NCBI GenBank assembly: GCA_048885865.1
Contig: JBHLLF010000017.1
Span: 314 to 64,313 of the forward strand
From: Candidatus Hermodarchaeota archaeon
GTDB lineage: Archaea > Asgardarchaeota > Thorarchaeia > Thorarchaeales > Thorarchaeaceae
Reading direction: 5' to 3'
Length of the DNA: 64,000 nt
Shown here: piece after piece, positions 10,865 to 35,197 of the stretch
Numbering within the stretch: position 1 is the stretch's first letter
Layout: each line of letters starts with the position of its first letter
Made by a program: the position numbers and the translations under genes
The notes under the pieces: model-generated
What the model was told of the DNA's origin: nothing
Databases searched by the model: none
What the model saw: the letters and a program-made list of their open reading frames with translations, nothing else

Positions 10865-11626
10865 TTGAATCATAGGGGAACATGGTCAGGAATTCTTATG
10901 GCAATTCTAGTTCTTGTTCCTATTTGGATGGCTGAAGCAACTATCAATCATGGATTATATTGGGGAATTGAAGTTGATGATAGGTTCGACTACAACTATA
11001 CGGAACTGGGATGGAGTGCTGATGGAACTAGATACCTAGATCACAGCCTAGACTACTATGTTGTTGTTGACAGTCTCCCTAGTATTCCTGTAAATGTCAC
11101 AGAGATTCCGAAAATATCTGCTACAGTCGCCCATGTGGTGAACATCTACTTTTCATTCTATTTCATGAACGGTACTGAGATTACAGGCGACATTATTTTT
11201 TGGCATGGAAATTTGCGTTGGTCTGCATATCCTGTTGGAAATTGGAGCTTGGTCGAAGAATGCACGATTGATAGGACGTACAGGTTTGATAGATCTTCAC
11301 TTCTTGCAGAAATGAATACTACCATTAGTTTCCCAGTAGATATCGAGATAATTGACACAGAAACTGAATGGGGATTAATCACCTCTGTGGAACTCAATAG
11401 CTTAGGTATTCACATTCAAAATGAAACTGTGAAGTATTCCAAGGCGGATGGTGCACTCAACCTCTTTGAGATGAACTGCCTCTTACAAAACGGCGATTAT
11501 CTGACCTTCAGAGCCTCTCGTACAGGTGGAGGAGTCGATAGTATGGTTCTGCTTGGAATAGGTGCAGTTACGATCGGATTAGCCGCATTTGTGGCGGCTA
11601 TACTCAAGAAGAGAGGCGTCAGATGA
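10865..11626 (+). CDS. Small anchored surface glycoprotein candidate (signal peptide, sequon-rich, C-terminal TM plus KKR)
   Basis: N-terminus is GILMAILVLVPIWMAEA. Sequons include NYT, NVT, NGT, NWS, NTT and NET. Tail is TGGGVDSMVLLGIGAVTIGLAAFVAAILKKRGVR. Confidence 0.65.
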   Translation: MNHRGTWSGILMAILVLVPIWMAEATINHGLYWGIEVDDRFDYNYTELGWSADGTRYLDHSLDYYVVVDSLPSIPVNVTEIPKISATVAHVVNIYFSFYFMNGTEITGDIIFWHGNLRWSAYPVGNWSLVEECTIDRTYRFDRSSLLAEMNTTISFPVDIEIIDTETEWGLITSVELNSLGIHIQNETVKYSKADGALNLFEMNCLLQNGDYLTFRASRTGGGVDSMVLLGIGAVTIGLAAFVAAILKKRGVR

Positions 11627-18849: not shown

Positions 18850-21654
18850 ATGGCCGACCTAACGCTACTGACTTTAGTTTTCGAGTTTATGTCTCCTCTT
18901 GTTGTGACTGTTGTCTATTTGATTCTCTTCAATAAGAGGCGGAGCAAGTTTATCGAAGCGTTCATCGGGCTCATGTACGCCCTGACTATTACATTCAATA
19001 TCTTCTACATCTGGTTCATTCCAGCAACGAATCCTCCAACATTTACTGAGATTGGCGGAACTGGTCTGATGTGGGCATTCTTTCTTGACCTAGTATTCCA
19101 GTTCGTGTACACTCTGCAGCAATATCTGATCTGGGTAATGGTTGCTTTCTTTGCTGTGCTTTTCGGGATGGTAGTTCTTGCTCTGAAACTGACATTGCAG
19201 GATCCATTGAAAATGAGATTCAGCAACCTCATTCGAAGAATAGTTGGCAGTGAGCCTGAGACCGACGGATACACAGGTCTTAGAGACCGATTAAACCATA
19301 TCACATTCGAAGGCGTCGAGCCTCAGCCCCTTGATCCTGAAGTTTTAGGAAGAGCATGGCGTGAAGCTTGGAAAGACTATCTCATCATTGGACTTGCTAC
19401 ACTCCTACCCTCCATCGGAGCTTATGTAGGAGATGTTGTGTCATATACGGCATTCATCAACACTGGCAACCCTGCGTATCTCATCAATCCCTACATTACA
19501 GGTGTATTCATCTTCCTAACTTGGATCTACAGATTTGGATACCCCGCGTCAAACAGGATTGCAAAGGGAGCAGGTATGTATCTAGGCGAGAGGGACCTTG
19601 GACAAGAGATGATGCGAGGTGTTCTGGGATGGTTCTTCAGACTGAACATTCTACTTTCCATATTCCTCATAGCAACTAGCGTCTTCAACGCGTTCAATGC
19701 CCCGTTACTAATTGGAAGTGGACCTGGGCAGCTCAATCTGAGTCAGGCCGTCATAACTGATTCAGTCATCCGATACTTCCGAGATGGATTGATCTATGCA
19801 TTGCCTCCTATTCTGATAGCTATCATCATTCTTCCACTCGTGGAAGACTTTGCCGTGGTGTTGTACAAGAAGGCATTCGAAAAGCTCGCTAGGAAAAAGG
19901 CAGATGCGGTTGATGACACTCCAAAGAGCAGAGCATCCAGCATAGGAAGCGGAATTGGCATAGGTACGCTAGTAACCGGCGCCTTCTTGGGAGGAGTAAT
20001 GGGCGCCACACTGCATTTCTCATTCAATAATCCCTTGAATCCTGGTCAATTTAGATTCATACCAGGTCAAGTCGATACCTTTGTCGAAACCCTACTCATC
20101 GCTCCATTTACGAATGACCAGCTCATTCTCCCGGTATCATGGACTCTACTAATGCTAGCTATACCTTTTGCTGCCATGCTGTTGCTTGGTATTCTAGGAC
20201 ATATAGTTCGATCAAGAGCTATTGGCAGCACAGAGCTCTATGCATTTGTTGCTGGAGTCCTTGTTTCAGTCGCAACATATTTCCTGCTTCCCAATATGGA
20301 CTATCTGCTCAATGTTCTTCCCACACCTGCAGTGATTGATGGAGAGCTATTCTATAGACTTAGACCAATCATTGGTCCAACAACTGGAAATCTGCTATTC
20401 AGACTGGCTCTGCAGTATATTGTCAATCTACCAACCTATGTCTTCACTGCTCTATTCATCATGTACTACATGGAGTATCGTGAGAAATGGCGTGAACAGA
20501 CTGGAGAAGAATCAAAATCAATACTGAATCTGGAATCTCGAGATGTCTATCAATCTATTGGCATGTTTGTTGCGGGACTAGTCATAGCAATAGTCGCCGT
20601 ATTTGCGCTAGCAATGATGATTGACCCTGGTCTGCTCACCAATACATTAGTAGGCCTCTTTTCAGAAATAGGTGATCCAAATGGACTCGAAGGAGTATTG
20701 GCATGGATTGCTGAAGTGGACTATCACACTCCGTTCATTATTATCGCTGAGCACAACATAATTCGTACTCTGATTATGCTTGTATTTGGGCCCATGTTCT
20801 GGGCAGCAGTACTGTGGTTGGTTGGTGTCAAGAAGACAGCAGAGGAATCGAGCGTAGCAAGGATTGGGCTTGCGGTGACTGTAGTGGGTGTCGTTGCGAC
20901 ATTCCTATGGACCTACTTCGATATGACGAGAGGTGTATTCACGCCAGCACCTACATTGAATTGGATGATTCCTCTACATATTCAGGATCCATGGAGCCTA
21001 GCCGCTCAGATGGGTCTCCGTGCCATTCTCGTTTTTGGAGCTCTAGCTCTGGTCTACGCAATTATCATTGGAGCTCGAGTAAGTGGCGGCAAAGGTGCTG
21101 GTGCATGGTGGTTCCCTCTGTTCCTGTCCATCTTCGCATTGGAGTACTTCATATATGATGACCAATTCACCCTAATTGCTGTAATAGTAATACCGATGTT
21201 TCTGGCGATTCTGTATAAGGGAGCATATATGGGTCGTGAAGAAGTTCGGCGTGAAGATATACTGCTGACCTATATCAAGTTCAGCTTCATGTCAATCGCC
21301 ATTGCAGAGGTCTTGTCTACAGCTCTAATTATTGGAGGCATTAGCATTATCGATATGACCTTCACAGGATCTGCGCTGCCATTCCTCTCTAGTATAATAC
21401 CACACGCCGTGATCGAGATACCTACATTTCTGATTGCCGCGGCAATTTCGCTCAGGATAGCAAAGAACCTCTCTCCCAGCGTGGAACAAGAGAACTGGGA
21501 AGAGCTTCCCACCAAGACCAGGGCGCTATTGACTGACGAGAGGACTTGGAGGATATACCTGCTAATCGTATTCTTCCTTTTGGTTTCTGCGCTCATTGAG
21601 GCGTTTGTCACTCCACTAATTGTGGAATGGGTCCTAACTTTCGTCATGGCCTAG
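18850..21654 (+). CDS. Large polytopic membrane protein (about 20 TM) with SpoIIM/DUF95-like C-terminal module
   Basis: 934-aa ORF that is almost entirely hydrophobic helices. The C-terminal motif IIPHAVIEIPTFLIAAAISLRIAK resembles the conserved H-x-x-x-E-[IL]-P helix of the stage II sporulation protein M family. Confidence 0.8.
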   Translation: MADLTLLTLVFEFMSPLVVTVVYLILFNKRRSKFIEAFIGLMYALTITFNIFYIWFIPATNPPTFTEIGGTGLMWAFFLDLVFQFVYTLQQYLIWVMVAFFAVLFGMVVLALKLTLQDPLKMRFSNLIRRIVGSEPETDGYTGLRDRLNHITFEGVEPQPLDPEVLGRAWREAWKDYLIIGLATLLPSIGAYVGDVVSYTAFINTGNPAYLINPYITGVFIFLTWIYRFGYPASNRIAKGAGMYLGERDLGQEMMRGVLGWFFRLNILLSIFLIATSVFNAFNAPLLIGSGPGQLNLSQAVITDSVIRYFRDGLIYALPPILIAIIILPLVEDFAVVLYKKAFEKLARKKADAVDDTPKSRASSIGSGIGIGTLVTGAFLGGVMGATLHFSFNNPLNPGQFRFIPGQVDTFVETLLIAPFTNDQLILPVSWTLLMLAIPFAAMLLLGILGHIVRSRAIGSTELYAFVAGVLVSVATYFLLPNMDYLLNVLPTPAVIDGELFYRLRPIIGPTTGNLLFRLALQYIVNLPTYVFTALFIMYYMEYREKWREQTGEESKSILNLESRDVYQSIGMFVAGLVIAIVAVFALAMMIDPGLLTNTLVGLFSEIGDPNGLEGVLAWIAEVDYHTPFIIIAEHNIIRTLIMLVFGPMFWAAVLWLVGVKKTAEESSVARIGLAVTVVGVVATFLWTYFDMTRGVFTPAPTLNWMIPLHIQDPWSLAAQMGLRAILVFGALALVYAIIIGARVSGGKGAGAWWFPLFLSIFALEYFIYDDQFTLIAVIVIPMFLAILYKGAYMGREEVRREDILLTYIKFSFMSIAIAEVLSTALIIGGISIIDMTFTGSALPFLSSIIPHAVIEIPTFLIAAAISLRIAKNLSPSVEQENWEELPTKTRALLTDERTWRIYLLIVFFLLVSALIEAFVTPLIVEWVLTFVMA

Positions 21655-21926: not shown

Positions 21927-24900
21927 ATGATTAAACCGAGCAGTAAGATGATAACACTGTTCGCCCTTGCCCTTTTCACATTATCTCTTATGACAGCCCC
22001 AGCATCAGTGCCACCCTCTTCGGCACCAGAGAATTGGGTAGTCAATACGCAGACTCCTTTGAGGTCTGGAGTCCTTTCTGATTACCCCGACAACTATACT
22101 CGAGTGGAATGGGATCAGGGTACATGGAATGAACAGTGGGTTGATTCATGGAACCAAAGTCATTATCAGTTTGGTCCAACGGTCACATATCAAACTCGAA
22201 ATGCCACGAATAGCGCTCTTATCAGATGGAACGAAACAATTGACCTGGATGGTTGGGTCAATCTTATTATGAAAGTCCCGAAGACGGCCCTTTCCTATGA
22301 GATTCCTTTTGCAGTGCTCTTCCAGGCATCATACTACAATATGTCAGAGCTTGGCCCTGAGGGAAGAATGACTGAAGCAGGTTCTACTCCTATCACCGCT
22401 ATGGGCATGTATTTCGTGAATGAGTCTAGATGGGATTTCTATTCTTCAATGAATATGACTTTTCCAGAAGAGCCTCCATCTGACCTACCTGCAGGAACAA
22501 CGATAGAAGACGTTTTTGGGCCGCCAATAGATCCATTCATGGAGCTCGATGTAGCTGGCTGCTCAGCAGCGGCTGGAGTCGATTATTACTGGGCGACTTT
22601 CAAATTTAGGTTCAATCAATCTGCTCAGACAGGATTCTATCATATTATGGCCATGGCTATGGATTCAAGTCTTCAACCGATTGCTCAAAGCATAACGGAC
22701 GAATTTGGCGGACGGATTTTTGGTGCAACCTTTGATGATCTGGTCCATCAGGCTGTAGGAGGCTATTACTCTTGGAGTAGATTGGGCGACGATGGTAATA
22801 TACTGCTATCTGCTACAAGAGGAGAAGACTTCAATCAGACGGCAACCATCACGAATGGTACACTGCTAGCCAACGTGACATTCTATATTGACGTGCCTAG
22901 TCAAGTACTAACCACACAGTGGGTCTATGGTCCTTATACTGAAGTTCAGCAATCGACTGGAGGTTGGGAGTACGATACAATAAGTGAGACCTACATATGG
23001 AACGCCACAGTTCCAGTTACTCGAACGCTGCACTTTGATGGACTTCATCCGGAAACCTACTATACGGGTATCGACCTATCAATTGAGTATCAATTTTGGG
23101 ACGGATTTCAGTTCCATAATGACTGGGCATGGCCCAGACAAGCGGTTACATACCATTTCCATAATGACTCCTTTACAGTCAATCTGGCCTATGATTTCCG
23201 TACTTACGAATACATGGATGATCCGAAAGGTGGCTATTGGTATGAAACTTGGAGGACTCAGTACCTCCCATGGCCTGGCGCTGATGTACCTCTGACCTAC
23301 ATTTTGAATGCAAGCACTAGTGGTCACTCTTTGGCTGGCCAGAGGCATGTTGTCAACTTTAGAGGTCATATCAGTGAAGATGTACTACCTACAGGTGGAG
23401 AATTCGGCATGGGGCCTCTTCATATTAGGGATAGAGTAACCAACTTCGAAGGCAGGGATCTTGCGCAAGCAGCAGATCTCCCAATATCTTCTGAGGAAGA
23501 GAAGGCGGCATCTGAGATGCTACGCCAGCTTGGTGTTGAGTCTCCTACTGCAGTTGTGCGTCTAGTCCAGAAGGGACAGCCCTATCATCCAAGCTGGATG
23601 TTCCAGAGCGATGTGGGTGAAACTTTCACCGTACAGTCCCTCCTTCAAGGTGGTGCGGAGCTTGCAGCAGACATCGATGGTGTCGGATTGTTCTTACGTG
23701 CTTGGGATGAGAAATGGGGCTGGGACATGGGGGAGGACTGGCAACAGCATTCAGAGATTGAAGTGCAAATCCGAATAGATGACACCGGCGTTGTTGATGT
23801 GAAGGTCTTCAACTACACACGTAGGACATCTTGGGGTACGGGTCTACATTATGAATGGATGTACGTAGAGGTGATTCCAGGTGTTTGGGAATGGCGAGAA
23901 GTCGAGATTATAGGTGATTATTGGCAGGAATTGATTTGGGATCACAAGCTTGGTGATTGGACTAACGAGTGGTTCCCATTCCATGATAGTCGGTCAATCA
24001 TGAGTGTAGACTATTTCGATGTTGGTAATCTGACATATGGCCTAGTCGGAAATGATCTGCGAATAGTCTTCGATGTCACACCTAGGTCTGGGATACCTGG
24101 CCTTGAATGGAATTGGGACTTCTTCTATGGCAATCTGACTTGGGTTACAGACTACGAATCAGGAGAAGACTTCCATCTTGTAACAGGTTGGATTGAGGAT
24201 ACTGTCTATTCATACAAGAATGGAACAGACACGCTCCATCTATCAACTCCATATCACGATGTAGTCTTCAGGAATAATGTTACAGACGAACTCTACGTCC
24301 AAGAGAGCTTCCCCTTCATCGTCATTGATGGCACTGAGTATGAAGTGGAAAAGTACTATGTCGACACGGGCGGCGGCCTAGAAGAACGAGTCGTCTTTGA
24401 GAGATGGGACCACGAGGGTTGGGATGAAAACACTCAGTCCTACTCAGGCAATTGGAAACACTGGTATCAGTTAACAAACGGCACCGAAATTGATATCCAT
24501 CTCGGAACGAGTGCCATGATTTTCAACATCACCCTTGATGATGGAAGATGGTTCTTGGCTCCAGAAGACTTTCCACGTTACAATCCTTTCCTCAATGAAG
24601 AGTTCTTCATAATGCTAAATGGAACTCAAATTGTCGTGAGGAATGAAACAGGCCAGATATACTTCTACACCCCTGCACCATTGAGTACCACTCCTGTGAA
24701 GTTTGATGACACCTATGTGATCTATGCCAACGGAAGGAAACCAGTTTACTTGGCTGTGGAGCCATTCTGGGAAGTAGATCATTATGTGCTATATCTGAAC
24801 TCAACCCATGAGCGATTAGATGTATGGTGGGATGACTTCATGGGCCGCTATTTCTACTGGAATACGACAGATTTCACCCAGTACTATTTCGATGGCATGC

Positions 24901-27900
24901 ACTGGTCTCGGGTGTTTGAGGGCAAGTGGATGGGTGAGGATTTCCTAATAGATGAACTGGGTTATGGAATCAGGTATAAAGCATTTACAGAATTACATGG
25001 CAATGTCTATCCTCTGCCAATGCCCGGAATGGATGTATGGGATATCTTTGATCTCAACTACATTACCCCCAAGAAACATTTCGTACACATCAATGGCGGT
25101 ACTTATGAGGCGTACCCCCTGCCGCAGGGCTATGATCCAGTTCTGTCCTATTGGTACAACCAATACCAGGCAGATGTTGAGGGAGTACTGTATAATCTCA
25201 CTGAGTACAGCTGGAATCCATTCACTCCATGGACGCCCATGTCTGAACTCGACAGACCGTTCACAGCAATCGCTAATGGTTCAATTGGTGTTCCCGAAAT
25301 CTTCCACAAAGATTGGACAGTAGCGCTGGGACACACGAATTCCGACACCAGACGGTTTACTGTTGACCAGTGGCTGGAACTCAAGTCTGGAAATTATCAA
25401 GATCCAATGTGGCCAGATAGGATTTTCTTTGATGATCTTGGATATCCCTATGTTGTGACCATGAATGATGAGATGATGAATTACACCCAACATGCTCGTG
25501 CATATTTCTTCAACATTACACTTCAAAATGGGACGAGCTTCCATAGCATTGATCCATGGTTCAATGTATACGAAACATGGAATGAAACATCTCAGTTTTG
25601 GGAAGTTCATTACTACTATTTCCTGGATCTGAATGGTAGTGAAATTCGGCTCTACGATTTACCCGAATTCAACTTCACTCAGGAGAACTCAACCATTGTT
25701 GATGATATTTACAACCCGACGTACTATTGGGTAGATGGACAACAGTACGAGATCTTCAGGGTGGAGTGGCAGCCATTCTTCACTCTAGATGCAGCTAATG
25801 GCACTTCGTGGGAAGTTGTGGACCTACAGAATGACTGGGAGCACAGATTCAATATTCCATCATTCAACTTCACATTGGATAGTGGTGTGACTTGGTATAA
25901 AGTGACAGGCAGTCGCGATATGATATACCAAGCATTTTGGACTCATGGTTGGTCTCAGAAGCTGGATTACAGGCCACTTCCAGTTACCATATTGCGCGAA
26001 CAATGGTCGATAGTCATTGGAACGCCACGCTATGGAATGTGGGATATAGATTCATGGACAGTTGATGAAACGACTGGGGCACTCGATCTTGACGGCAACC
26101 TTGATACGACCAACGACCAGTACTACGTAGGGAGCTCCTATCAGTCCTCACACAGCTACAATGTTACTCAAGAGTATCTTTGGGTCAACATAGTTTGGGA
26201 GCCGAATTCAACACTTTGGCAAGATGAATTCTATTTGAACTCGTACGCCGGAATGGTCACCACGAACTGGTCCTACACCTGGGCAGACAATTACTACTGG
26301 TATCATGCTGATACCGGCGACCAATTGACGAGTGTGGAGATGACAGAGATTCAGAATCAACTTCTCGATCCAATGGGTCACCCAGCCCCTGGATATTGGG
26401 GCATTAGCTGGATGGCGCAGAATTTCACGTCCGAATTGATGAAGGCACAAGCCCAGGCTGAGGGGTGGGAATGGTTTGACACTTCTCAGGAATGGTCATG
26501 GATTTGGTGGGAACTGCAAGAGGGCTACACTACTGATGTTAACAATGGAACTCACATAGTTCCAATGGATATCAGTCTCGCATACCAGTATGCTGGAATG
26601 ATGGCTTGGAATGATACCAGCAATGATTCATTCCTGGATATCAATGTGGCTAGTCTGGGCAGTGCAGAACTGACCCACTACTGGATGCCAGCAAGTGTAG
26701 ACTCTGTGACCTTCACCACACCAGGTGAAGCTTGGGGCAATACCAACTCCACTGACGTTGAGTATCGCCCAGTCAATGAAACAATCGATTTTGGAGTCGC
26801 ATTCTTCAATATCAGCGGAGAAGTATTCCCATTTGGTGATTGGTCCTACTGGGATTGGTACGATGGTCAATACTATGGTTCGGACTTTTCCTCATTTGAG
26901 GAACGACCATCTCTTGCTGAAGTAGACGAGTTCTCCATTGATGTACATTTCACTGGAAACGTGAATACTACAGGCGGTCCCAATTATGCAAGTGTCAAAT
27001 TTGACATGCTAATTGGCGACTGGTATCTTGATTCACCAGGAGGCCGTGAAAGCAACCTTGATGGGTACAGTCTTGCAGTTGCTTTCTATAGCGATTTGAC
27101 AATAGTGACTCCTGAAGGGACTGAGATTCCGCCTTGCTATACCAATGACCTGGGACAACCGCTTTTCAACAATCAGGCAAACGCATCAAGCAGCTATGGA
27201 ATGGGGACTACTCTTTCCAGAGTGGCTTTGATGAACATGGGCGGTTCAACCTATAGCTGGGCACGAAACGCTTCAATGGCTCCAACCGTTTCAGCGCAAA
27301 CAGTGCCATTGTCCACATTCAGCACAATGTATGTATCCGATGCTGGAGGGTCTGCTACGGCATTTGATGTCACCTCATCACAGTTCTACACTGTGATCAG
27401 TTTCAAGCACTGGGCTGGTTATCAAGTTGAGGTCGACCCGGTGTTTGTAAGCTATGTTTCGCGTGGTGCAGATGATGCAACGTCTCCTTCGATTGATTAC
27501 TGGAATGAAGCGTCGGTTGATGTGCTAGGGACAGAGAATCTACGATTGGAGATTCAGGCATCTGACGAAGGCGGTTCAGAAATTTCCAAGGTTGTTGTCA
27601 TGGACCTTGACAATGTCGTGAACTACACAGCAACTTGGGAGGAGCCTGCTGGAGCATATGTAGTTGAGGTGCCACGATCTCAAGATGGCAGATACAACTT
27701 CAATTACCGAATTGTGGTGGTGGATGGTGCTGGCAACCAAGTCACGATTGATGATACCTATATGTTCAGAGACAACATCGATCCTATCATCAATAGTGTG
27801 GATGCTGACAATTCCACTGATGTGTTTGGACTTGAGATTGCGGTTATATCAGCTGATGTTTCTGACCTTGGCGGGTCAAACATCGCGTCTGTGACACTGA

Positions 27901-28544
27901 CCTACTCCAACACATCGGGCAACTATGATGTTGCGATGGTCGATACAGGTTTGGTGTACGAGGGTACTATACCCAACCATGCACCAGGTACCTTTGTGGA
28001 CTACTGGGTAACAGTTGAAGACGGAGATGGGAACTCGGTTCTGAGTTCTACAGGCAATTTCCAGTTCGCTACTGGTGGTGGTCCTGACACACTTGGGCCA
28101 TCAATAACCTCGGTCAGCGAACCCCCGTCGTCTCCTACAACCTCGGATTCCGTCACAGTTACCGCAACTGTCCAGGATGCCTCAGGTGTCAATGCGGTTA
28201 CTCTCCAATACAAGATTGACGATGGCACTTGGAATAATGTGTCTATGAGCGCTATTGGAAATACCTACACTGGTGTAATACCTGCTCAGGCTGGAGGCAG
28301 CCTAGTCACTTACAGGATTGTCGCTACCGACACTGTCGGAAACGAAGCCATCTCAGTTGAGAGGAACTACACTGTTGCCAGTGACACTACTACTCCAACA
28401 ACAGAGCCTACCACTCCAACTGAACCCCCACCACCTCCGCCACCTCCGGGATTGGATGACACCATGGTCATGATGGTCATGGGCGGATTGTTTGGACTTG
28501 TATTCATCTTCATTGGTGTGAATGTGGTTCGTCGAAGAAGGTAA
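21927..28544 (+). CDS. Giant secreted, C-terminally anchored W/Y-rich glycoprotein candidate (2205 aa), family unknown
   Basis: Uninterrupted 6.6-kb ORF with signal peptide MITLFALALFTLSLMTAPASV. I count 14 N-x-S/T sequons in the first ~480 aa by eye, and Trp/Tyr content is very high. Conserved TGALDLDGNLDTTNDQYY Ca-loop-like block. The C-terminus has three Ig-like repeats, a Pro/Thr linker, then a TM helix plus RRRR. Confidence 0.9.
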   Translation: MIKPSSKMITLFALALFTLSLMTAPASVPPSSAPENWVVNTQTPLRSGVLSDYPDNYTRVEWDQGTWNEQWVDSWNQSHYQFGPTVTYQTRNATNSALIRWNETIDLDGWVNLIMKVPKTALSYEIPFAVLFQASYYNMSELGPEGRMTEAGSTPITAMGMYFVNESRWDFYSSMNMTFPEEPPSDLPAGTTIEDVFGPPIDPFMELDVAGCSAAAGVDYYWATFKFRFNQSAQTGFYHIMAMAMDSSLQPIAQSITDEFGGRIFGATFDDLVHQAVGGYYSWSRLGDDGNILLSATRGEDFNQTATITNGTLLANVTFYIDVPSQVLTTQWVYGPYTEVQQSTGGWEYDTISETYIWNATVPVTRTLHFDGLHPETYYTGIDLSIEYQFWDGFQFHNDWAWPRQAVTYHFHNDSFTVNLAYDFRTYEYMDDPKGGYWYETWRTQYLPWPGADVPLTYILNASTSGHSLAGQRHVVNFRGHISEDVLPTGGEFGMGPLHIRDRVTNFEGRDLAQAADLPISSEEEKAASEMLRQLGVESPTAVVRLVQKGQPYHPSWMFQSDVGETFTVQSLLQGGAELAADIDGVGLFLRAWDEKWGWDMGEDWQQHSEIEVQIRIDDTGVVDVKVFNYTRRTSWGTGLHYEWMYVEVIPGVWEWREVEIIGDYWQELIWDHKLGDWTNEWFPFHDSRSIMSVDYFDVGNLTYGLVGNDLRIVFDVTPRSGIPGLEWNWDFFYGNLTWVTDYESGEDFHLVTGWIEDTVYSYKNGTDTLHLSTPYHDVVFRNNVTDELYVQESFPFIVIDGTEYEVEKYYVDTGGGLEERVVFERWDHEGWDENTQSYSGNWKHWYQLTNGTEIDIHLGTSAMIFNITLDDGRWFLAPEDFPRYNPFLNEEFFIMLNGTQIVVRNETGQIYFYTPAPLSTTPVKFDDTYVIYANGRKPVYLAVEPFWEVDHYVLYLNSTHERLDVWWDDFMGRYFYWNTTDFTQYYFDGMHWSRVFEGKWMGEDFLIDELGYGIRYKAFTELHGNVYPLPMPGMDVWDIFDLNYITPKKHFVHINGGTYEAYPLPQGYDPVLSYWYNQYQADVEGVLYNLTEYSWNPFTPWTPMSELDRPFTAIANGSIGVPEIFHKDWTVALGHTNSDTRRFTVDQWLELKSGNYQDPMWPDRIFFDDLGYPYVVTMNDEMMNYTQHARAYFFNITLQNGTSFHSIDPWFNVYETWNETSQFWEVHYYYFLDLNGSEIRLYDLPEFNFTQENSTIVDDIYNPTYYWVDGQQYEIFRVEWQPFFTLDAANGTSWEVVDLQNDWEHRFNIPSFNFTLDSGVTWYKVTGSRDMIYQAFWTHGWSQKLDYRPLPVTILREQWSIVIGTPRYGMWDIDSWTVDETTGALDLDGNLDTTNDQYYVGSSYQSSHSYNVTQEYLWVNIVWEPNSTLWQDEFYLNSYAGMVTTNWSYTWADNYYWYHADTGDQLTSVEMTEIQNQLLDPMGHPAPGYWGISWMAQNFTSELMKAQAQAEGWEWFDTSQEWSWIWWELQEGYTTDVNNGTHIVPMDISLAYQYAGMMAWNDTSNDSFLDINVASLGSAELTHYWMPASVDSVTFTTPGEAWGNTNSTDVEYRPVNETIDFGVAFFNISGEVFPFGDWSYWDWYDGQYYGSDFSSFEERPSLAEVDEFSIDVHFTGNVNTTGGPNYASVKFDMLIGDWYLDSPGGRESNLDGYSLAVAFYSDLTIVTPEGTEIPPCYTNDLGQPLFNNQANASSSYGMGTTLSRVALMNMGGSTYSWARNASMAPTVSAQTVPLSTFSTMYVSDAGGSATAFDVTSSQFYTVISFKHWAGYQVEVDPVFVSYVSRGADDATSPSIDYWNEASVDVLGTENLRLEIQASDEGGSEISKVVVMDLDNVVNYTATWEEPAGAYVVEVPRSQDGRYNFNYRIVVVDGAGNQVTIDDTYMFRDNIDPIINSVDADNSTDVFGLEIAVISADVSDLGGSNIASVTLTYSNTSGNYDVAMVDTGLVYEGTIPNHAPGTFVDYWVTVEDGDGNSVLSSTGNFQFATGGGPDTLGPSITSVSEPPSSPTTSDSVTVTATVQDASGVNAVTLQYKIDDGTWNNVSMSAIGNTYTGVIPAQAGGSLVTYRIVATDTVGNEAISVERNYTVASDTTTPTTEPTTPTEPPPPPPPPGLDDTMVMMVMGGLFGLVFIFIGVNVVRRRR
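27470..28378 (+). repeat. Three tandem ~100-aa Ig-like domain repeats (protein level) inside giant protein 1
   Basis: The recurring pattern ...GGS.I..V.L.Y......Y.V.M......Y.G.IP....G..V.Y.V.V.D..GN... occurs three times: SEISKVVVMDL..., SNIASVTLTYS... and SGVNAVTLQYK.... It is followed by the TTTPTTEPTTPTEPPPPPPPPG linker. Confidence 0.6.
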
Positions 28545-28558
28545 TTTCAAACAGAGAC

Positions 28559-28598
28559 CTGAGGGTGTACCCCTCAGAGTTCTCTTCTCTTTTTCTTC
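28559..28598 (+). terminator. Hairpin plus T-tract after giant gene 1
   Basis: CTGAGGG-tgtac-CCCTCAG stem-loop at 28559-28577, then agttctcttctctttttcttc. Confidence 0.5.
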
Positions 28599-28704
28599 AT
28601 CCAGTCATCTAGGAGAGATTCCCACGTAAATATGCATGGCTAGACCTTTACAATTCATTCATTGTCTCCATAAAAACCATGCAACAATATCTTATATTCA
28701 ACAA

Positions 28705-28728
28705 TAATACTATAGATTATATATTGAT
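28705..28728 (+). promoter_or_regulatory. TATA-like element upstream of giant gene 2
   Basis: aataaTACTATAGATTATATATTGata lies about 80-95 nt upstream of ATG 28805, in an AT-rich spacer downstream of a terminator. Confidence 0.35.
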
Positions 28729-28804
28729 AGCGCGCCAAGCTCGCTTCTTCGTTGAGATTAAGGCTATCATGCATGTGGCCTGTGGTCTCGCCACCTATTG
28801 AGTC

Positions 28805-31800
28805 ATGGTGCGCAAGGAGTTAACGAATTTGCGACGACGAGAATCCAGACGTGCACTGTTTTCTCTAGTTGCTGTTATGCTATTTCTACTTTCAATGACA
28901 TATGCGGGAAGTACTGCAGCTGTTCCAGCCACCACGACAGCGGCTATTTCACCATTATATTATACACCATCCGCAATCACCAGCCAGGAGCCTGAGAATG
29001 GCACCTATGTCTGGTGGAATCAGGACAGTAACAGCACTAGTGACGAGTGGACGTGGAACAACAGGAATTGGCTGTTTGGTCCAAGGCCTTCATTTGAGAT
29101 ATTCCATGCAAATGGAAGCCTTCTGACCAAGGACAGCTATGCTGAGATAGGCGAAATCCTGAGGTTCGTGGTGACTGTGCCCAGAGGCGTCTTTACTCAA
29201 GATGCCGACATTGGGCGTGTCCAGTTCTACGGATGGTATATGACTCAAGATTACAACTACTCAGCAAACTTCGATTTCAGCTACGACAGCTGGAATATCG
29301 ACAATCATTGGTGGGCATATAGCAGTCAGTGGAACTACACTGAGGAGCCTAATCCGATTAATCCAATTGATCCCTACGAACCACCGCCACCAATGCCGAG
29401 CTTCATTGACATTTATCCGGGTCAATGTTCCATTACAAGTGATCCTGATGCATATTATCTGACTTTTGCTGTGAGCTTCATTGCAGAGGCTCCATTGGGT
29501 CTCTATGAGCTGAACATGAATGTAGAGGATGACCAATGGAACTGGATTGGTTCCTACAACTATGGTTCAGGCTGGGAGTTCACAGGAATAGCAGTAGGAA
29601 TGTATGCAGACATGGCCTGGGCCACATCCTATGGTGGATCTTACACCCTACAGAAGCTGGACATGTCCGGAGATGCACTCTACTCAGTAGCAAGGGGTAC
29701 AGACTTCATGATGAGGTTCAACATCTCGGGCGATATTGAGTATGCGATGCTTGGCTTTAGAATGCCTTCTGACATGTATGTCACTGTCAATGTTACAGGA
29801 TGGCATGATGAAATGGTCACAACTACAGGTGCTTGGGAATACGATGATTTTGTGCAGACATATATCTGGAATGCTTCCAAGCAGGTGACCTACATGCAAC
29901 ATGTCTTTGGCCCTTATGAGCAACGTCAATATACATCGCTTGGCATTTCTGAAGAAGTCAATGTGACTGTCATCCGTGAAGACTGGAACAATGTCACAAT
30001 GACCTATGACAAGTATTTGGCAAATGAAACCTATTGGGTCGAGCGCCAATTCTTCTACATCTATAATCAGACAACTTCTTCGTTCGAAAGCTACTACGGA
30101 TACACATACTATGGCTATCCCCACGACTACATAGTCAATGAATGGGACTGGAACGAGGAGATCATGATTGTAGAGCCAATCCCTGCAGATCTACCAGTAT
30201 TCTTCGAGCTTAACACGACAAGGAGCTCTGCTCAGCTGAAAAATAACGAGCTGGTAGTAGACTTTGTTGGTCACTTCACGGACAAGATGCCAAAGACAGG
30301 CGAAGGCATGTACTTCGAGTTCTTTGACAGAGTAGTTGGTCCTGACAACTGGTACTATGGCCCAGCCACTTGCGGAGAAAGACCTCGCCAGACAGAGAGC
30401 GAATATCAAATGGCTAGGCGAATCACCATTGAGACCCCTGTGACAATTGCTAGACTTCTGAGGCCCGATGGTTCTGAGCCATCTGGATGGATGTTCCAGG
30501 CGGACAAGGGTGCGCCTTTCAAAGTCCGTGGAAGGCTTCAAGGCGGCAGTGACATCGCTGATGATATCGATGCAGCCAGTCTTATGCTAAGGGCCTATGA
30601 TGGCTACTGGACAGAGGAAGAATATGGTTGGTCAGAACTGACATATGAGATCGAGGTGGGCGTTGATGGAACTCCCAGATTGCGTGCGTTCAACTTCACC
30701 GAGAAGCACAACTATACTTGGGGTATGTACATGGACTATGTCTACTCTAACGTCACTGGTTGGCATGACGCATACAATGAGGAAACCAATGCTTGGGAGT
30801 GGACCTATGGTGAATACCAAGAATGGCTTTGGACCGAGGTTGAAGGTTGGCATTGGCAATGGTGGTACTTTAACCAGCTAACTGGCAAATGGCAGACCGA
30901 TTACATCCCTTACCAGAGCGCAGAGACCGAGGTTGTTGCAGACTTCTGCACAACATCTGGATTCTCTAGCTGGTCCGAGGGCGGCGACTTCTTCTTGGAG
31001 TTCGATGTTGTCATGGCTCCTCACGTACCTGACACAAACTACTGGTGGGAGTTCGCCTTCATGAACAACACTTGGTTTGAGGACTACTCAAGCAATTATG
31101 GTGAGCATGAAGTCCTGAGCTGGGACCGTGAGTGGATATACAGCTTTGACTACCTCGGTGAGAAGGTTTACATGGATCCTGTAGCGGAGAACCAGCTTGC
31201 CTTTTTCAATGGAACTCTGAGTTCAGACTTCATGATTGGCAAGGAAAGCCCATACATTGTTATCAACGACGAGAAGCTACCAGTCAAGGTTCGAGAGAAC
31301 TTCGACCCCGGCTGTGGGACCACTTGGACTGAGATGTTCTTCTATAGTCACATGGACCCAGCAACTGGCAAAGATGTCTACTTCTATGAGCTAATGAATG
31401 GTACAAAGATCTATGTCAGCTACACAGACGTAGTTTACATCTTCAATGTCACATCTCTTTTCGGAGACTCATTCCTCACAGCAATGAGTTACGATTGGGG
31501 TTGGTTTGATGGCACTAATTCCTACAATTATTGGATCGATATCTATGGTGGAATACACCAAGGTGGTTTGGAATACTATTGGGGTAATAGCGTTATTGAG
31601 CTATATGACAGGGTCGAGGTAGATTTCAACAATATAGGCTATTTCATGAGATACGGTACCGATAAGATGCTGAACGTTTCGAATTGGTACTGGAGCAGCA
31701 GAGATGGGATGTACTTTGTTGAAGGTACTGACCACAATCTCTACGAGATGGTCTATAACGAGACAGACTACTACTATCATATCTTCATTGAAGGCAAGTG

Positions 31801-34681
31801 GCAACTCTGTAGCTGGCCCGAGCGGTACTACATAGCTGATTTCGAGGGATCTGAAGCAATGCTGTTTACATACGACCAGCATCGGTTCTGGTTCCACGAG
31901 TCTGAAGGCGTTAAACATGAAATGCCATATCCTGGCGCGAACGCTCCTTGGCACTATGAGATGAGTCACACAATCTCTGAGGGCGGCTTTGTGCCAACTA
32001 CCAAGTCACTGCTGTACAATGACAGGGCCTATCCAGTATACAACATCTCGATGGACTACTTTGTAGACATTGCAGGTGCAACATACTCTCTGGACATGAC
32101 CTATGTTCCCCACTCTGTTGCTAATGGGACAGACATCTGGGCTCCACTTAGAGTAGGAGTCGAGGGTGTCGTTGGTGACTTCGATAACGATCTGCTCTTC
32201 TCTGAAGTTGAGACGATCCAATACTACACTCCTGACATGATGGGTCAGCCCCGTTGGGACTCAATGCATGGCTATTATGTCATCGACCTCTTCAATGGGA
32301 CGAAGTGGATTGCCAACTACTCTTATGCGATGCTCCTGAATGAATTTGATTACTCTGGAGTGACATTCTATTCTGCTCAGGACTATCCATACTACTACGA
32401 AGATGGCAACTCGTCCTGGTACGAGTACTGTCTTATCAATGGCACATATCTTGAGGTTCCTGACTTTGATAGTGCCACACGAGTTGGCAGACATTTGGTA
32501 TATACCTATGAAAGCCCAATGAATGGCACCGTCTTTGACTTCATGTCAGAAACCTATCTCATCTATTACTGGGGCATGAATGTTTGGGGATACACAGTCC
32601 ACAATGCCACATATTCAGGAACGCTATTCTTGAATATGCAGATGGGCGGCCATGATGTCCTCCAGTTTGACTATCTTGGAACTCCTGTCACTGCTACTGC
32701 AGCCTTTGAGAGCATCGAACGGATGCGTCAGAGATGGGGCTATGCTCTAGTATATGGTCCATCTCCGATTCAGAGTGATGTCTACAAGAACTTCTACGAC
32801 CTCATTATTGGTGTTCCCGAATGGGGCATGTGGGGCTTGAAGAACTGGGATATCAATCCTGATAACGGCGCGCTTGACCTTGACGGAGACCTTGAAACAG
32901 TGGATGATCAGTACTTCGTACAGGAGCAGTACACTTCAACTGATAGCTGGACCCATACTTGGGACCGAATGGATGTCCACATAACTTGGGATCCGAACGG
33001 CACGATCTGGGGTGATGAGATGAATGTCAATTCCTGGCTAGGTTTAGACATCTTCTCATGGACCTATGAATGGTCACAGACTTTCTATTGGTACACGACC
33101 GATATGGTTCAACTTGATGCTTTACAAATGCAGAGCGTCAAGGACACTCTGTTGACTGCTGAAGGCGATGCCCGCCCAGGATACTGGGACATATCTTGGA
33201 TGGCTAAGAATGTGACATGGGCTGATCTGGTGGCTGAAGCAGAGGCCAACGGTTGGGACTGGATCACATCGAATGAACAGACCTGGACTTGGATGAGCTT
33301 CGGCGTGGGTCAAGATTACGGCACAAGTTACGATGACTTCGGTACAGAGCACTGGGCTCGTATCGGAATGCACTATGAGTATAGCGGTCTAATGATCTGG
33401 GAAGACCTGAACGACAACGGTCAGATGGATGTCGACTTATTCGACCCCGGCAGTGGTGAACTCAGTCATTATCTGATTCCTGATTCTGTCGGCAGCGTTG
33501 GATTTGTCACTCCAGGCCAGGCTTATGGCAATCCCGACTCCCAGGGCTACATGCATCTAGACCTCTTGGATGAGGTCACTTGGGGCGTGAACTTCTATGA
33601 GATTAATGGGACATCGTTCCCATTCACTCTGGATGGCTATTGGGGTTGGTACGATGGTTTCATGACTGGTTCTGACCTTAGAGGCTTCGATCAGCGACCC
33701 ACTGAGGTGGTTATCGATGAGATCTCGTTCTTAGTGCACTTCCAGGGATACATTGACGCAGAGTCACTGAACAACTACGCTGACATCAAAGTCGACAACT
33801 ATGTTGGCAACTGGGATGTCGACATGATTGGTGGTCGCGACAACTTGAAGAACCGCTCTCTGGCTCTCAATTACTTCGCAGACGTGAATATGCACGACTT
33901 CGCCTTCAAGGCAGAAGGGTCCGTCGCGGACAATGAGATGACCGTTAGCGCAGATGTCTTCGAGTTTGAGACTGCAACAGCACAGTTTGCGAAGATGATC
34001 ATGGGCGGTGTCACCTACGACTGGGGCAAGAACACTTCTGCCTCCTATGATGTCGTTAGCTACACCACACCTGTTGGTACATTCCGAACGGCGTTCGAGT
34101 CAGATAACGGCAAGTCGGCGACTTCCTGGTCATTTGGCTCTAACATGTTCTACGTGACTATTGGCTTCCCGCAATGGGATGGCTACAGTGTCTACCAAGA
34201 CCCAGTGTTTGTGAGCTACGTATCAAGGGCTGGTGCACCAGACCTGCCTGAGGGCATGTACATCGGTCCATTGACCCTTGATATAGCCACACCTACTGCG
34301 ACCGACACCGTTACAGTGAGAGTAGATGTCTATTCTGAAACTGAACCAATCTATGGGGTTGACCTCATGTACGGCACAGACGGCGAGAATTGGTGGTCTG
34401 ATCCGATGTCGAAGGAAGGAGAATACACCTATGTTGGTATAATTCCACCTTTCGAAGACCAGACAGAGGTCTTCTACATGGTTATGGTCCACACACAGGG
34501 TGGCGACTATCAATCTCAGGTCAGTAGCTACATTGTCGGTGGCAGACAGACAACATATCCTGGAGGATTTGATCTTGACATGGACATGCTGATGCTTCTT
34601 GGAGGCGGAGGATTTGTCCTTGCCATGATCGGCGGTCTTGTCCGTAGGCGACGCCGAGGTCGTACATCTTACGAATGGTAA
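28805..34681 (+). CDS. Giant secreted, C-terminally anchored W/Y-rich glycoprotein candidate (1958 aa), collinear paralog of 21927-28544
   Basis: Signal/anchor ALFSLVAVMLFLLSMTYAGSTAA. Shared blocks with giant 1: GVPEWGMWGLKNWDINPDNGALDLDGDLETVDDQYFV; ARPGYWDISWMAKNVTWADLVAEAEANGWDW; QDPVFVSYVSRAG. It has one C-terminal Ig-like domain. Tail is YPGGFDLDMDMLMLLGGGGFVLAMIGGLVRRRRRG. Confidence 0.9.
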   Translation: MVRKELTNLRRRESRRALFSLVAVMLFLLSMTYAGSTAAVPATTTAAISPLYYTPSAITSQEPENGTYVWWNQDSNSTSDEWTWNNRNWLFGPRPSFEIFHANGSLLTKDSYAEIGEILRFVVTVPRGVFTQDADIGRVQFYGWYMTQDYNYSANFDFSYDSWNIDNHWWAYSSQWNYTEEPNPINPIDPYEPPPPMPSFIDIYPGQCSITSDPDAYYLTFAVSFIAEAPLGLYELNMNVEDDQWNWIGSYNYGSGWEFTGIAVGMYADMAWATSYGGSYTLQKLDMSGDALYSVARGTDFMMRFNISGDIEYAMLGFRMPSDMYVTVNVTGWHDEMVTTTGAWEYDDFVQTYIWNASKQVTYMQHVFGPYEQRQYTSLGISEEVNVTVIREDWNNVTMTYDKYLANETYWVERQFFYIYNQTTSSFESYYGYTYYGYPHDYIVNEWDWNEEIMIVEPIPADLPVFFELNTTRSSAQLKNNELVVDFVGHFTDKMPKTGEGMYFEFFDRVVGPDNWYYGPATCGERPRQTESEYQMARRITIETPVTIARLLRPDGSEPSGWMFQADKGAPFKVRGRLQGGSDIADDIDAASLMLRAYDGYWTEEEYGWSELTYEIEVGVDGTPRLRAFNFTEKHNYTWGMYMDYVYSNVTGWHDAYNEETNAWEWTYGEYQEWLWTEVEGWHWQWWYFNQLTGKWQTDYIPYQSAETEVVADFCTTSGFSSWSEGGDFFLEFDVVMAPHVPDTNYWWEFAFMNNTWFEDYSSNYGEHEVLSWDREWIYSFDYLGEKVYMDPVAENQLAFFNGTLSSDFMIGKESPYIVINDEKLPVKVRENFDPGCGTTWTEMFFYSHMDPATGKDVYFYELMNGTKIYVSYTDVVYIFNVTSLFGDSFLTAMSYDWGWFDGTNSYNYWIDIYGGIHQGGLEYYWGNSVIELYDRVEVDFNNIGYFMRYGTDKMLNVSNWYWSSRDGMYFVEGTDHNLYEMVYNETDYYYHIFIEGKWQLCSWPERYYIADFEGSEAMLFTYDQHRFWFHESEGVKHEMPYPGANAPWHYEMSHTISEGGFVPTTKSLLYNDRAYPVYNISMDYFVDIAGATYSLDMTYVPHSVANGTDIWAPLRVGVEGVVGDFDNDLLFSEVETIQYYTPDMMGQPRWDSMHGYYVIDLFNGTKWIANYSYAMLLNEFDYSGVTFYSAQDYPYYYEDGNSSWYEYCLINGTYLEVPDFDSATRVGRHLVYTYESPMNGTVFDFMSETYLIYYWGMNVWGYTVHNATYSGTLFLNMQMGGHDVLQFDYLGTPVTATAAFESIERMRQRWGYALVYGPSPIQSDVYKNFYDLIIGVPEWGMWGLKNWDINPDNGALDLDGDLETVDDQYFVQEQYTSTDSWTHTWDRMDVHITWDPNGTIWGDEMNVNSWLGLDIFSWTYEWSQTFYWYTTDMVQLDALQMQSVKDTLLTAEGDARPGYWDISWMAKNVTWADLVAEAEANGWDWITSNEQTWTWMSFGVGQDYGTSYDDFGTEHWARIGMHYEYSGLMIWEDLNDNGQMDVDLFDPGSGELSHYLIPDSVGSVGFVTPGQAYGNPDSQGYMHLDLLDEVTWGVNFYEINGTSFPFTLDGYWGWYDGFMTGSDLRGFDQRPTEVVIDEISFLVHFQGYIDAESLNNYADIKVDNYVGNWDVDMIGGRDNLKNRSLALNYFADVNMHDFAFKAEGSVADNEMTVSADVFEFETATAQFAKMIMGGVTYDWGKNTSASYDVVSYTTPVGTFRTAFESDNGKSATSWSFGSNMFYVTIGFPQWDGYSVYQDPVFVSYVSRAGAPDLPEGMYIGPLTLDIATPTATDTVTVRVDVYSETEPIYGVDLMYGTDGENWWSDPMSKEGEYTYVGIIPPFEDQTEVFYMVMVHTQGGDYQSQVSSYIVGGRQTTYPGGFDLDMDMLMLLGGGGFVLAMIGGLVRRRRRGRTSYEW

Positions 34682-34750: not shown

Positions 34751-35197
34751 CTACGAAATGAGAGTCGGCTTTAGCTTGTTATGGAAGAACCTGATTCCTG
34801 CAAGATGTGCTTCGTATGTTGTGTTGAAGATATCATATGAGATACCAGTGACTGGCATCGCATTTCTGATTATTAGATAGTTCTTCTTGTCTATGCCAAA
34901 GGTCATCTCTGCTAGCCTTGCATTTGATTTCAGAAGAGCCTCATACAGCTTGGTCCTTTTTGAAACGGAGCTTAAGTCCATGAGTCTTGTTGTTAGGGTG
35001 ATCCAATGCTTGCCCGGAAATACTTCGATCTCCTTGGTTTCAGTCGGTCCATATGGGTACAAACTGAAAGTCTTTCTTCCATGTTCCTCGAAATTGACCT
35101 CCAGTCTCTTAAGATACTCTTTTGCAATGAACCACGTAGTGCTCATATTTATCGACTCGTCTCGGGCAGAGCTGTGCATGGGATTCTGTCTCAGCAT
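34751..35197 (-). CDS. Small soluble protein, possible YbjN / type-III-secretion-chaperone-like fold
   Basis: 148-aa ORF with ATG start, no TM helix and no signal peptide. The pattern FIAKEYLKRLEVNFEE...ITLTTRLMDL...LYEALLKSNARLAEMTFGIDKKNYLIIRNAMPVTGISYDIF resembles YbjN-family proteins. This is memory-based and weak. Confidence 0.55.
   Translation of the reverse strand: MLRQNPMHSSARDESINMSTTWFIAKEYLKRLEVNFEEHGRKTFSLYPYGPTETKEIEVFPGKHWITLTTRLMDLSSVSKRTKLYEALLKSNARLAEMTFGIDKKNYLIIRNAMPVTGISYDIFNTTYEAHLAGIRFFHNKLKPTLIS

Follow-up and report, generated by a model that had tools for sequence, protein, structure and literature searches.

The 64,000-nucleotide stretch analysed here (the window) comes from Candidatus Hermodarchaeota archaeon, a member of the Thorarchaeaceae in the GTDB lineage (assembly GCA_048885865.1, contig JBHLLF010000017.1, positions 314 to 64,313), and it raises the question of why several secreted proteins should end in the same way. 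A sequence-only reading of this DNA had proposed that five such proteins, here called T1 to T5, share a C-terminal tail that might serve as a novel sorting or anchoring signal. We find that a tripartite tail, composed of a short motif, a hydrophobic helix and an Arg/Lys cluster, recurs in mutually unrelated surface proteins of Thorarchaeota and is specific to that lineage. The explanation that we favour, with a probability of roughly 0.45, is that this Thor-type tail is a Thorarchaeota-specific C-terminal anchoring module, wherein the helix would be a retained anchor and the motif block would be recognised by a shared factor. The proteins and their tails are as follows.

7082 to 9376, plus strand: T1, 764 amino acids (752 from the database start), a DUF4350, GldG-like or ThuA-like type-I surface protein.
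9209 to 9316, plus strand: tail of T1, TPGGGLPFDLDLTTLLIIGGAVLALILILVLVSRRR, with motif, helix and basic cluster (translation).
9317 to 9373, plus strand: predicted cytoplasmic polybasic extension of T1, SGGSTPKKQPKKKPAKKKK, 19 residues, with a pattern kept across the T1 family.
10865 to 11626, plus strand: T2, a secreted protein of 253 amino acids without a family match.
11522 to 11614, plus strand: tail of T2, TGGGVDSMVLLGIGAVTIGLAAFVAAILKKR.
21927 to 28544, plus strand: T3, a giant surface protein of 2198 amino acids counted from the database start at 21948, paralogue of T4.
28440 to 28541, plus strand: tail of T3, PPPGLDDTMVMMVMGGLFGLVFIFIGVNVVRRRR, with a Thr/Pro stalk upstream; its motif match was made by eye and is without statistical support.
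28805 to 34681, plus strand: T4, a giant surface protein of 1958 amino acids.
34556 to 34657, plus strand: tail of T4, YPGGFDLDMDMLMLLGGGGFVLAMIGGLVRRRRR, followed by GRTSYEW.
36335 to 42580, minus strand: T5, an adhesin-like protein of 2081 amino acids with TSP3 repeats, an NHL repeat and an FRG1-like domain (Pfam, NCBIfam).
36380 to 36466, minus strand: tail of T5, TPPNLLLILVVLGGFIGIAVVAVWIRRRK, followed by a predicted 14-amino-acid cytoplasmic extension at 36338 to 36379.

All five proteins have an N-terminal signal-peptide-like segment and a single C-terminal hydrophobic helix that is followed by an Arg/Lys cluster, and a hydropathy scan flagged no further open reading frame (ORF) in the window with a signal peptide and a single C-terminal helix. 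Judged by these topology features, T1 to T5 are predicted type-I surface proteins. T1 matches the Pfam family DUF4350 at 40 bits and also the IFT52 GIFT domain at 31.2 bits, a Pfam family named after a eukaryotic protein, and it has more than 120 homologues, nearly all of them from Thorarchaeota. There is no match for T2 in the Pfam or NCBIfam scan. T3 contains a CBM_56 match (28.8 bits, Pfam), and T4 has orthologues in loci L001, L010, L083 and L066. T3 and T4 are 38% identical across 518 residues and are paralogues, and T1, T2 and T5 are unrelated to this pair and to one another. Thus, the five separate secreted proteins proposed earlier all retain their signal-peptide-like segments, but they represent four independent families rather than five. 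The five peptides that had been pointed out do lie at the 3′ ends of the five ORFs. As descriptions of the protein ends, however, they hold for T3 only, as T1, T2, T4 and T5 run on past the basic cluster.

The shared motif has the consensus [P/G]-Φ-D-x-T-[T/M]-L-L-I-I-G-G, followed by about 13 hydrophobic residues and then RRR. The helix spans about 21 residues and is flanked by Asp on the outside and by Arg/Lys on the inside, with the conserved residues forming a contiguous block at its outer end. When aligned on Gly-Gly, the tails of T1 (FDLDLTTLLIIGG) and T4 (FDLDMDMLMLLGG) fall in one register. The layout first described, a Pro/Gly plus acidic motif before a Gly-containing helix and an Arg/Lys cluster, is present and can now be given as a sharper motif, except that the T5 tail has no acidic residue. 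Some orthologues of T5 do have the motif (P0131, QDNTLLLLGLGGAG; P0129, YPDLMLTIVLLCGGG; and P0132). There are about ten carrier families, which are mutually unrelated, and three or four independent carriers are located within the window. A Thr/Pro/Gly stalk frequently precedes the tail.

Tails of the T1 family read GG-[L/F]-P-[F/L/I]-D-x-T-T-L-L-I-I-G-[G/A], followed by a variable helix, RRR and a polybasic extension. Among 78 unique tails of this family, the entropy minima form one contiguous block from D to TLLIIG, plus the Arg residues (D at −23, 0.52 bits; T at −20, 0.47; L, 0.65; L, 0.76; I, 1.09; I, 0.20; G at −15, 1.14), and the distal two-thirds of the helix are variable at 1.2–2.1 bits. 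This pattern bears on the idea that the tail is a helix-helix association motif, wherein Gly-Gly, a small-xxx-small arrangement and Thr/Asp at the outer leaflet would cluster surface proteins or bind a common base protein without the involvement of any enzyme. Small residues indeed recur at −15, −14, −13 and −10 in T1 tails, and GGxxG or GxxxA spacing is present in T2, T3 and T5. However, conservation follows one contiguous run of 8–10 residues and not an i, i+4, i+7 face, and the predicted extracellular P-Φ-D part lies outside the helix, so that we consider such an association improbable.

The recurrence of the motif was assessed with a hidden Markov model (HMM) that was trained on T1-family tails alone and applied to the C-terminal anchors of proteins without BLAST similarity to T1. 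The Thorarchaeota tails score 40.3, 31.4, 28.8 (T4), 23.1, 22.0, 17.3 and 14.0 bits and are then graded to below zero, such that 7 of 19 unrelated tails reach at least 14 bits. Shuffling these tails with their zones preserved gives scores that average 0.1 bits (standard deviation 4.1, 99th percentile 12.6), and helix-plus-basic segments inside polytopic proteins of Thorarchaeota (n = 29) score no higher than 7.8 bits. When models were built leaving out the family under study, T2 and T4 scored 18.0 and 24.7 bits, respectively, and none of 500 shuffles equalled either value. Neither T3 (−3.1 bits in the leave-family-out model, 6.5 bits with the T1-only HMM) nor T5 (8.1 bits leave-family-out, with 9% of shuffles as high) is significant alone. 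What remains of the tail said to be shared by five proteins is a recurrent, lineage-specific tripartite module whose motif holds up in T1, T2 and T4; T3, where it is arguable, and T5, where it is weak, are both weak members.

At the DNA level, similarity between the tails is at the level of chance, with a marginal value for T1 versus T4 (17, compared with a shuffle maximum of 16). This indicates that the likeness resides in the proteins and does not stem from recent gene conversion. Direct searches of large protein collections returned little. A profile of nine tails found just two fragments in an index of 5.8 billion proteins, and HMMER searches with the five window tails against 1.84 billion representatives gave five matches, all of them orthologues of T1, T2 or T3. 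For collections this large, a profile of 37 positions is too short.

Outside Thorarchaeota, the T1-only HMM gives between −2.5 and 2.2 bits for Loki- and Heimdall-type tails, and a set of control loci fetched with the glycyl-radical enzyme of the window, about 650 kb of Asgard DNA from outside Thorarchaeota, contributes 13 C-terminal anchors that all score 2.0 bits or less. An exact DNA pattern for D-x-T-T-L-L-I-I-G-[G/A] was also scanned in all 185,579 GTDB species genomes, where 51 stretches matched against a rough chance estimate of about 40. There are 12 Thorarchaeota-type archaeal matches, of which 10 are in confirmed C-terminal-anchor context and one more ends at the edge of the fetched stretch. 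Among bacterial-labelled matches only L196 has such a context. The remaining matches come almost entirely from bacteria and lie either within proteins or outside coding sequence. Across these genomes, the exact motif in C-terminal-anchor context is found exclusively on Thorarchaeota-type contigs, given that the contig of L196 is probably mis-binned Thorarchaeota DNA. Two groups of these exact carriers, L182/L196 and L189, belong to families without meaningful similarity to T1–T5.

The L196 contig itself (CAZACO010000665.1, 2.9 kb), which had been assigned to an uncultured Desulfobacteraceae bacterium, codes for a 326-amino-acid protein that is close to the Thorarchaeota protein L182, the DSTTLLIIGG tail included.

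These distributions also speak to the simplest alternative, which is that the tails are ordinary single-pass anchors whose likeness follows from generic rules, with acidic residues, Pro and Gly outside, a hydrophobic middle and positive charges inside. The helix-plus-basic layout is common to all single-pass type-I proteins, T3 and T5 fail against shuffles, and about half of the sampled Thorarchaeota single-pass anchors have no recognisable motif. Nevertheless, shuffles, internal helices of polytopic proteins and anchors of the Loki, Heimdall, Hel and Hod types are near zero with a model that gives 14–40 bits to unrelated Thorarchaeota tails. Moreover, the T2 orthologue in locus L003, which is just 27% identical overall, retains the tail GGLDTTMLLIIGG, and it is only on contigs of Thorarchaeota type that unrelated families share the exact motif of 10 residues. 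The ordinary-anchor reading is already disfavoured by this evidence, and we give it little credence.

Additional support for a lineage-specific signal comes from homologues of T1 that carry other tails. Those from other lineages end in GIPG[F/Y], and with the Loki-CTERM model (cut-off 19.9 bits) P0117, P0123 and P0116 score 23.0, 19.7 and 18.7 bits, respectively. Another homologue, P0125, ends in LPWYYYVAAGGGLLLII and passes GG_III-CTERM with 28.4 bits, where the cut-off is 22. These curated tails occupy the same position as the Thor-type tail, and five T1 homologues from Thorarchaeota matched no C-terminal model. Other proteins in the non-Thorarchaeota control loci also carry tails that pass Loki-CTERM (five of the seven tested) or GG_III-CTERM. 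Homologues thus have tails that depend on lineage, and unrelated proteins share one tail per lineage, which suggests that the signal is read by a lineage-specific factor. Tail swapping by lineage is the logic by which such domains are defined (bioRxiv 10.1101/2023.06.07.544157). The Thor-type tail is the Thorarchaeota counterpart of Loki-CTERM and of the GGIII-like tails of other Asgard lineages.

Curated models from NCBIfam release 20 and Pfam were run on full proteins and on isolated tails, and none of them recognises the Thor-type tail. All matches are under the cut-off with the exception of one to LPXTG_anchor. The best score for Loki-CTERM (NF033507) is that of T5, 15.7 bits against 19.9, with the other window tails unmatched and the signature IPG[FY] not present. 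For GG_III-CTERM (NF041738), the T1 tail reaches 14.5 bits and the L003 tail 12.8 bits against a cut-off of 22, which the positive controls pass (P0125 as given above; an L082 tail, 27.9 bits). Heimdall-CTERM (NF045529) gives 10.7 bits for T5 against 24 and leaves the other window tails unmatched, PEP-CTERM (TIGR02595) gives 7.5 bits for T5 against 16, and GVDTG_CTERM gives 19.1 bits against 29 among the window proteins and tails. There are no matches of window tails to PGF-CTERM (TIGR04126) or PEF-CTERM (TIGR03024) up to E = 10. With LPXTG_anchor (TIGR01167), the T4 tail lies at exactly the 15.9-bit cut-off through profile positions 13–32 only, and it does not contain LPXTG. The statement that the tail matches no known signature is therefore upheld. 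The claim of novelty does not extend to the kind of element, because Asgard-specific tails are already curated by NCBIfam as Loki-CTERM, Heimdall-CTERM and GG_III-CTERM. In the literature library that was searched, no paper turned up that gives an account of a Thorarchaeota tail, of Heimdall-CTERM, or of Loki-CTERM and its enzyme.

Two side observations concern these models. The LPXTG_anchor score of the T4 tail covers the helix and the basic part only, and such a match might lead to archaeal proteins being wrongly annotated as ‘LPXTG cell wall anchor’. A further apparent lineage-specific tail, with IGLD[Y/F]F followed by a helix and (H)SKKR, is present in ‘Promethearchaeota’ metagenome-assembled genomes (MAGs) without a class (L058, 2664–5486 and 5781–7484; L047, 12806–14644). 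The single tail of this type that was scanned matched no NCBIfam C-terminal model.

The Thor-type tail resembles each of the better-known systems in some respects and departs from each in others. Loki-CTERM likewise combines an Asgard-lineage-specific signature motif with a helix and a Lys/Arg cluster, but its signature is the PGF-like I-P-G-[F/Y] rather than P-Φ-D-x-T-T-LLIIGG. GG_III-CTERM and Heimdall-CTERM, which occur both on homologues of T1 and on unrelated proteins in Heimdall-labelled genomes, share a Gly-Gly(-Gly) that opens an aliphatic helix before a basic cluster, and it is from GG onward that the T1 helix aligns to the GG_III model with its 14.5 bits. In contrast to the Thor-type tail, they do not have D-x-T-T and have an aromatic W-Y-Y-Y or F-Y-I-I run before GGG. 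The PGF-CTERM/archaeosortase A and PEP-CTERM/exosortase systems have the same tripartite logic. In them, too, a Pro-containing signature immediately precedes the helix, stalks rich in Thr lie upstream, and the carriers are numerous surface proteins of unrelated families. To those systems, however, belong an exosortase, cleavage and lipid attachment, whereas the Thor-type tail is known from sequence alone. In GlyGly-CTERM, the substrate signal of rhombosortase, Gly-Gly is likewise found at or in a C-terminal helix that precedes a basic cluster, and the type-I orientation predicted for Thor-type carriers is that of rhomboid substrates. The Gly-Gly of GlyGly-CTERM comes before the helix, whereas that of the Thor-type tail lies 6–8 residues into it, and there is neither a GlyGly-CTERM model match for the window tails nor a rhomboid identified. 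Two hallmarks of the tripartite sorting-domain class (bioRxiv 10.1101/2023.06.07.544157) are found here, namely the succession of motif, helix and basic cluster, and the presence of several unrelated secreted carriers within one lineage and not elsewhere (Asgard controls, GTDB scan).

How might such a tail work? For a block that is common to unrelated proteins and evolves in concert within a lineage, the most likely role is recognition by a shared factor, and we infer the existence of this factor from that pattern. In the anchoring module that we favour, the N-terminal signal peptide would direct export of the protein and the ectodomain, often on a Thr/Pro/Gly stalk, would remain outside the cell. 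The helix of about 21 residues, together with the Arg/Lys stop-transfer cluster, would hold the C-terminus in the membrane with its basic end in the cytoplasm. The block [P/G]-Φ-D-x-T-[T/M]-L-L-I-I-G-G would then be positioned at the outer membrane face, where it may be read by one shared, lineage-specific membrane factor.

The sequences downstream of the helix bear most directly on whether the anchor is retained or removed. Beyond the basic cluster there are 19 residues in T1, three in T2 (GVR), seven in T4 and 14 in T5 (SMPEFEADFSSLTE). In the T1 family, an extension of about 16–20 residues follows RRR, and a pattern of a Gly/Ser linker and then a Lys/Pro-rich stretch ending in KKK(K) is kept in nearly all full-length tails read. 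All members of the T5 family have extensions of roughly 10–30 residues. Such extensions past the basic cluster are atypical of sortase-type signals, which suggests that the helix stays in the mature protein. The T1 family, moreover, combines the best-conserved motif with a conserved extension, and retention is also favoured by motif scores that are graded rather than bimodal and by the fact that no enzyme was found in the searches described below. Given these sequence features, we lean, for the T1 and T5 families at least, towards a helix that would remain in place as a permanent anchor.

Lys/Pro-rich polybasic extensions are present in the T1 homologues P0007–P0122, and similar ones in the T5 homologues P0131 and P0132. 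Two other identities were rejected. The lysines of the T1 extension do not consistently occupy the positions that a KKXX-type retrieval motif would require, and the presence of a basic tail speaks against a GPI-like signal.

Several points weigh against the anchoring module. The shared factor is hypothetical, and the anchors that have no recognisable motif are accompanied by others whose scores form a continuum instead of two classes. Leaving the T1 and T5 families aside, most carriers stop 3–4 residues past the helix, as sorting signals do. In every known case that has been worked out, shared tails proved to be cleaved (bioRxiv 10.1101/2023.06.07.544157). A contiguous conserved block beside a Gly-Gly helix also resembles the recognition sites of proteases and transpeptidases.

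These points lead to the alternative of a true sortase-type signal, which might be termed ‘Thor-CTERM’. Here, a dedicated polytopic membrane enzyme, whether exosortase/archaeosortase-like, rhomboid-like, CPBP-like or of an unknown family, would read P-Φ-D-x-T-T / LLIIGG and remove the helix and basic tail, after which the ectodomain would be released or would gain a new anchor such as a lipid. The tail fits the description of the sorting-domain class (bioRxiv 10.1101/2023.06.07.544157) in its tripartite layout, Thr/Pro-rich stalks, unrelated carriers and concerted evolution, and T1 homologues bear Loki-CTERM, which NCBI names as a sorting domain, in the same position. The helix-breaking Gly-Gly and the style of a Pro-plus-acidic motif favour cleavage, and the combination of Pro and an acidic residue, Thr and LLxxGG resembles the PEP-CTERM consensus, without an HMM match. 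Most carriers also finish at most 3–4 residues from the basic cluster. On the other hand, a peptide that is to be discarded would have no use for the cytoplasmic extensions predicted for the T1 and T5 families, the motif is degenerate in that no residue is invariant across families, and an enzyme appears neither in the window nor among the families listed for the polytopic Asgard ORFs that were scanned. We regard cleavage by such an enzyme as quite possible, while leaning the other way.

The search for an enzyme was conducted at two scales. The window encodes no sortase, exosortase, rhomboid or CPBP protease that could be recognised with Pfam and/or NCBIfam among every polytopic ORF and most other large ORFs, in agreement with the sequence-only reading. 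Beyond the window, Pfam was run on 49 and then on 24 polytopic ORFs from fetched Asgard loci. There is no exosortase or rhomboid among the families listed for these 73 ORFs (25 of 37 in the first scan), which are a tiny fraction of each genome, so that this negative does not settle the absence of an enzyme. The families listed include transporters, ICMT and Rce1-like proteins (CPBP; two members in each scan). One further version of the sorting hypothesis is that of an orphan Thorarchaeota system, in which the tail would be cut by an unrecognised membrane enzyme, possibly not homologous to those of the sortase classes, and the proteins would be re-anchored or released. We consider this rather doubtful. 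If true, the closest archaeal relatives of eukaryotes would possess a new pathway for protein sorting.

Two candidates for a CPBP protease that emerged from a motif screen were set aside. The ORF at L072 4714–5553 is a single occurrence without a counterpart in the other loci, and that at L042 3540–4733 is MFS-transporter-like, with its sole homologue in L041.

The Thor-type tail, with retention as an anchor still our preferred explanation, offers a practical marker for the surface proteome of Thorarchaeota. Next to the curated Loki-CTERM and GGIII-like models it closes a gap, it could itself be turned into a model for annotation, and it provides a query for phylogenetic profiling toward the factor that would read it. 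The occurrence of the same protein with different tails in different Asgard lineages makes it possible to follow cleanly how signal and machinery co-evolve. Predicted lipobox lipoproteins are a small share of Asgard secreted proteins (PMC12462473), which suggests that C-terminal tails are probably the main way in which Asgard archaea hold proteins on their surface.

There are also several observations on genes in and around the window. The genes for T3 and T4 (21927–34681) sit between a gene for a 934-amino-acid, 17-helix SpoIIM-domain protein (18850–21654) and a gene for a 148-amino-acid protein (34751–35197). In loci L023 and L038 these two flanking genes are adjacent, such that the giant genes look like a lineage-variable island in a conserved backbone. 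The same arrangement led us to reject the SpoIIM-domain gene as a dedicated partner of T3, which lies downstream of it, as it adjoins the gene for the 148-amino-acid protein in both loci without a giant gene between them.

Divergent from T1 is an ORF of 275 amino acids (6177–7004, minus strand) that matches the Pfam family SNAP (soluble NSF attachment protein) with 27.9 bits against a cut-off of 25. Like IFT52, this family bears the name of a eukaryotic protein, but the match may reflect no more than a TPR-like fold. The PFL-like glycyl-radical enzyme of the window (53543–56038; loci L098–L141) is 65–80% identical among Hel-, Hod-, Hermod- and Odinarchaeota and unclassified Promethearchaeota MAGs, and the glycyl-tRNA synthetase of the window is merely 71–76% identical to those of other Thorarchaeota. 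This suggests either transfer of the glycyl-radical enzyme between Asgard lineages or unusually strong conservation. With the synthetase of one Candidatus Thorarchaeota MAG the identity rises to 96%, which places the window in an Asgard archaeon.

Finally, there are two adjacent paralogous genes at 280–1341 and 1278–2306 whose products have C-terminal Gly-rich hydrophobic segments and end in QREKKG and YKGVSRKEAKEQI, respectively. Both members of the pair have weak N-terminal matches to zinc-ribbon or RING-like domains, and the tandem is kept across the Thorarchaeota loci examined (L001–L003, L010, L012, L073 and L087).

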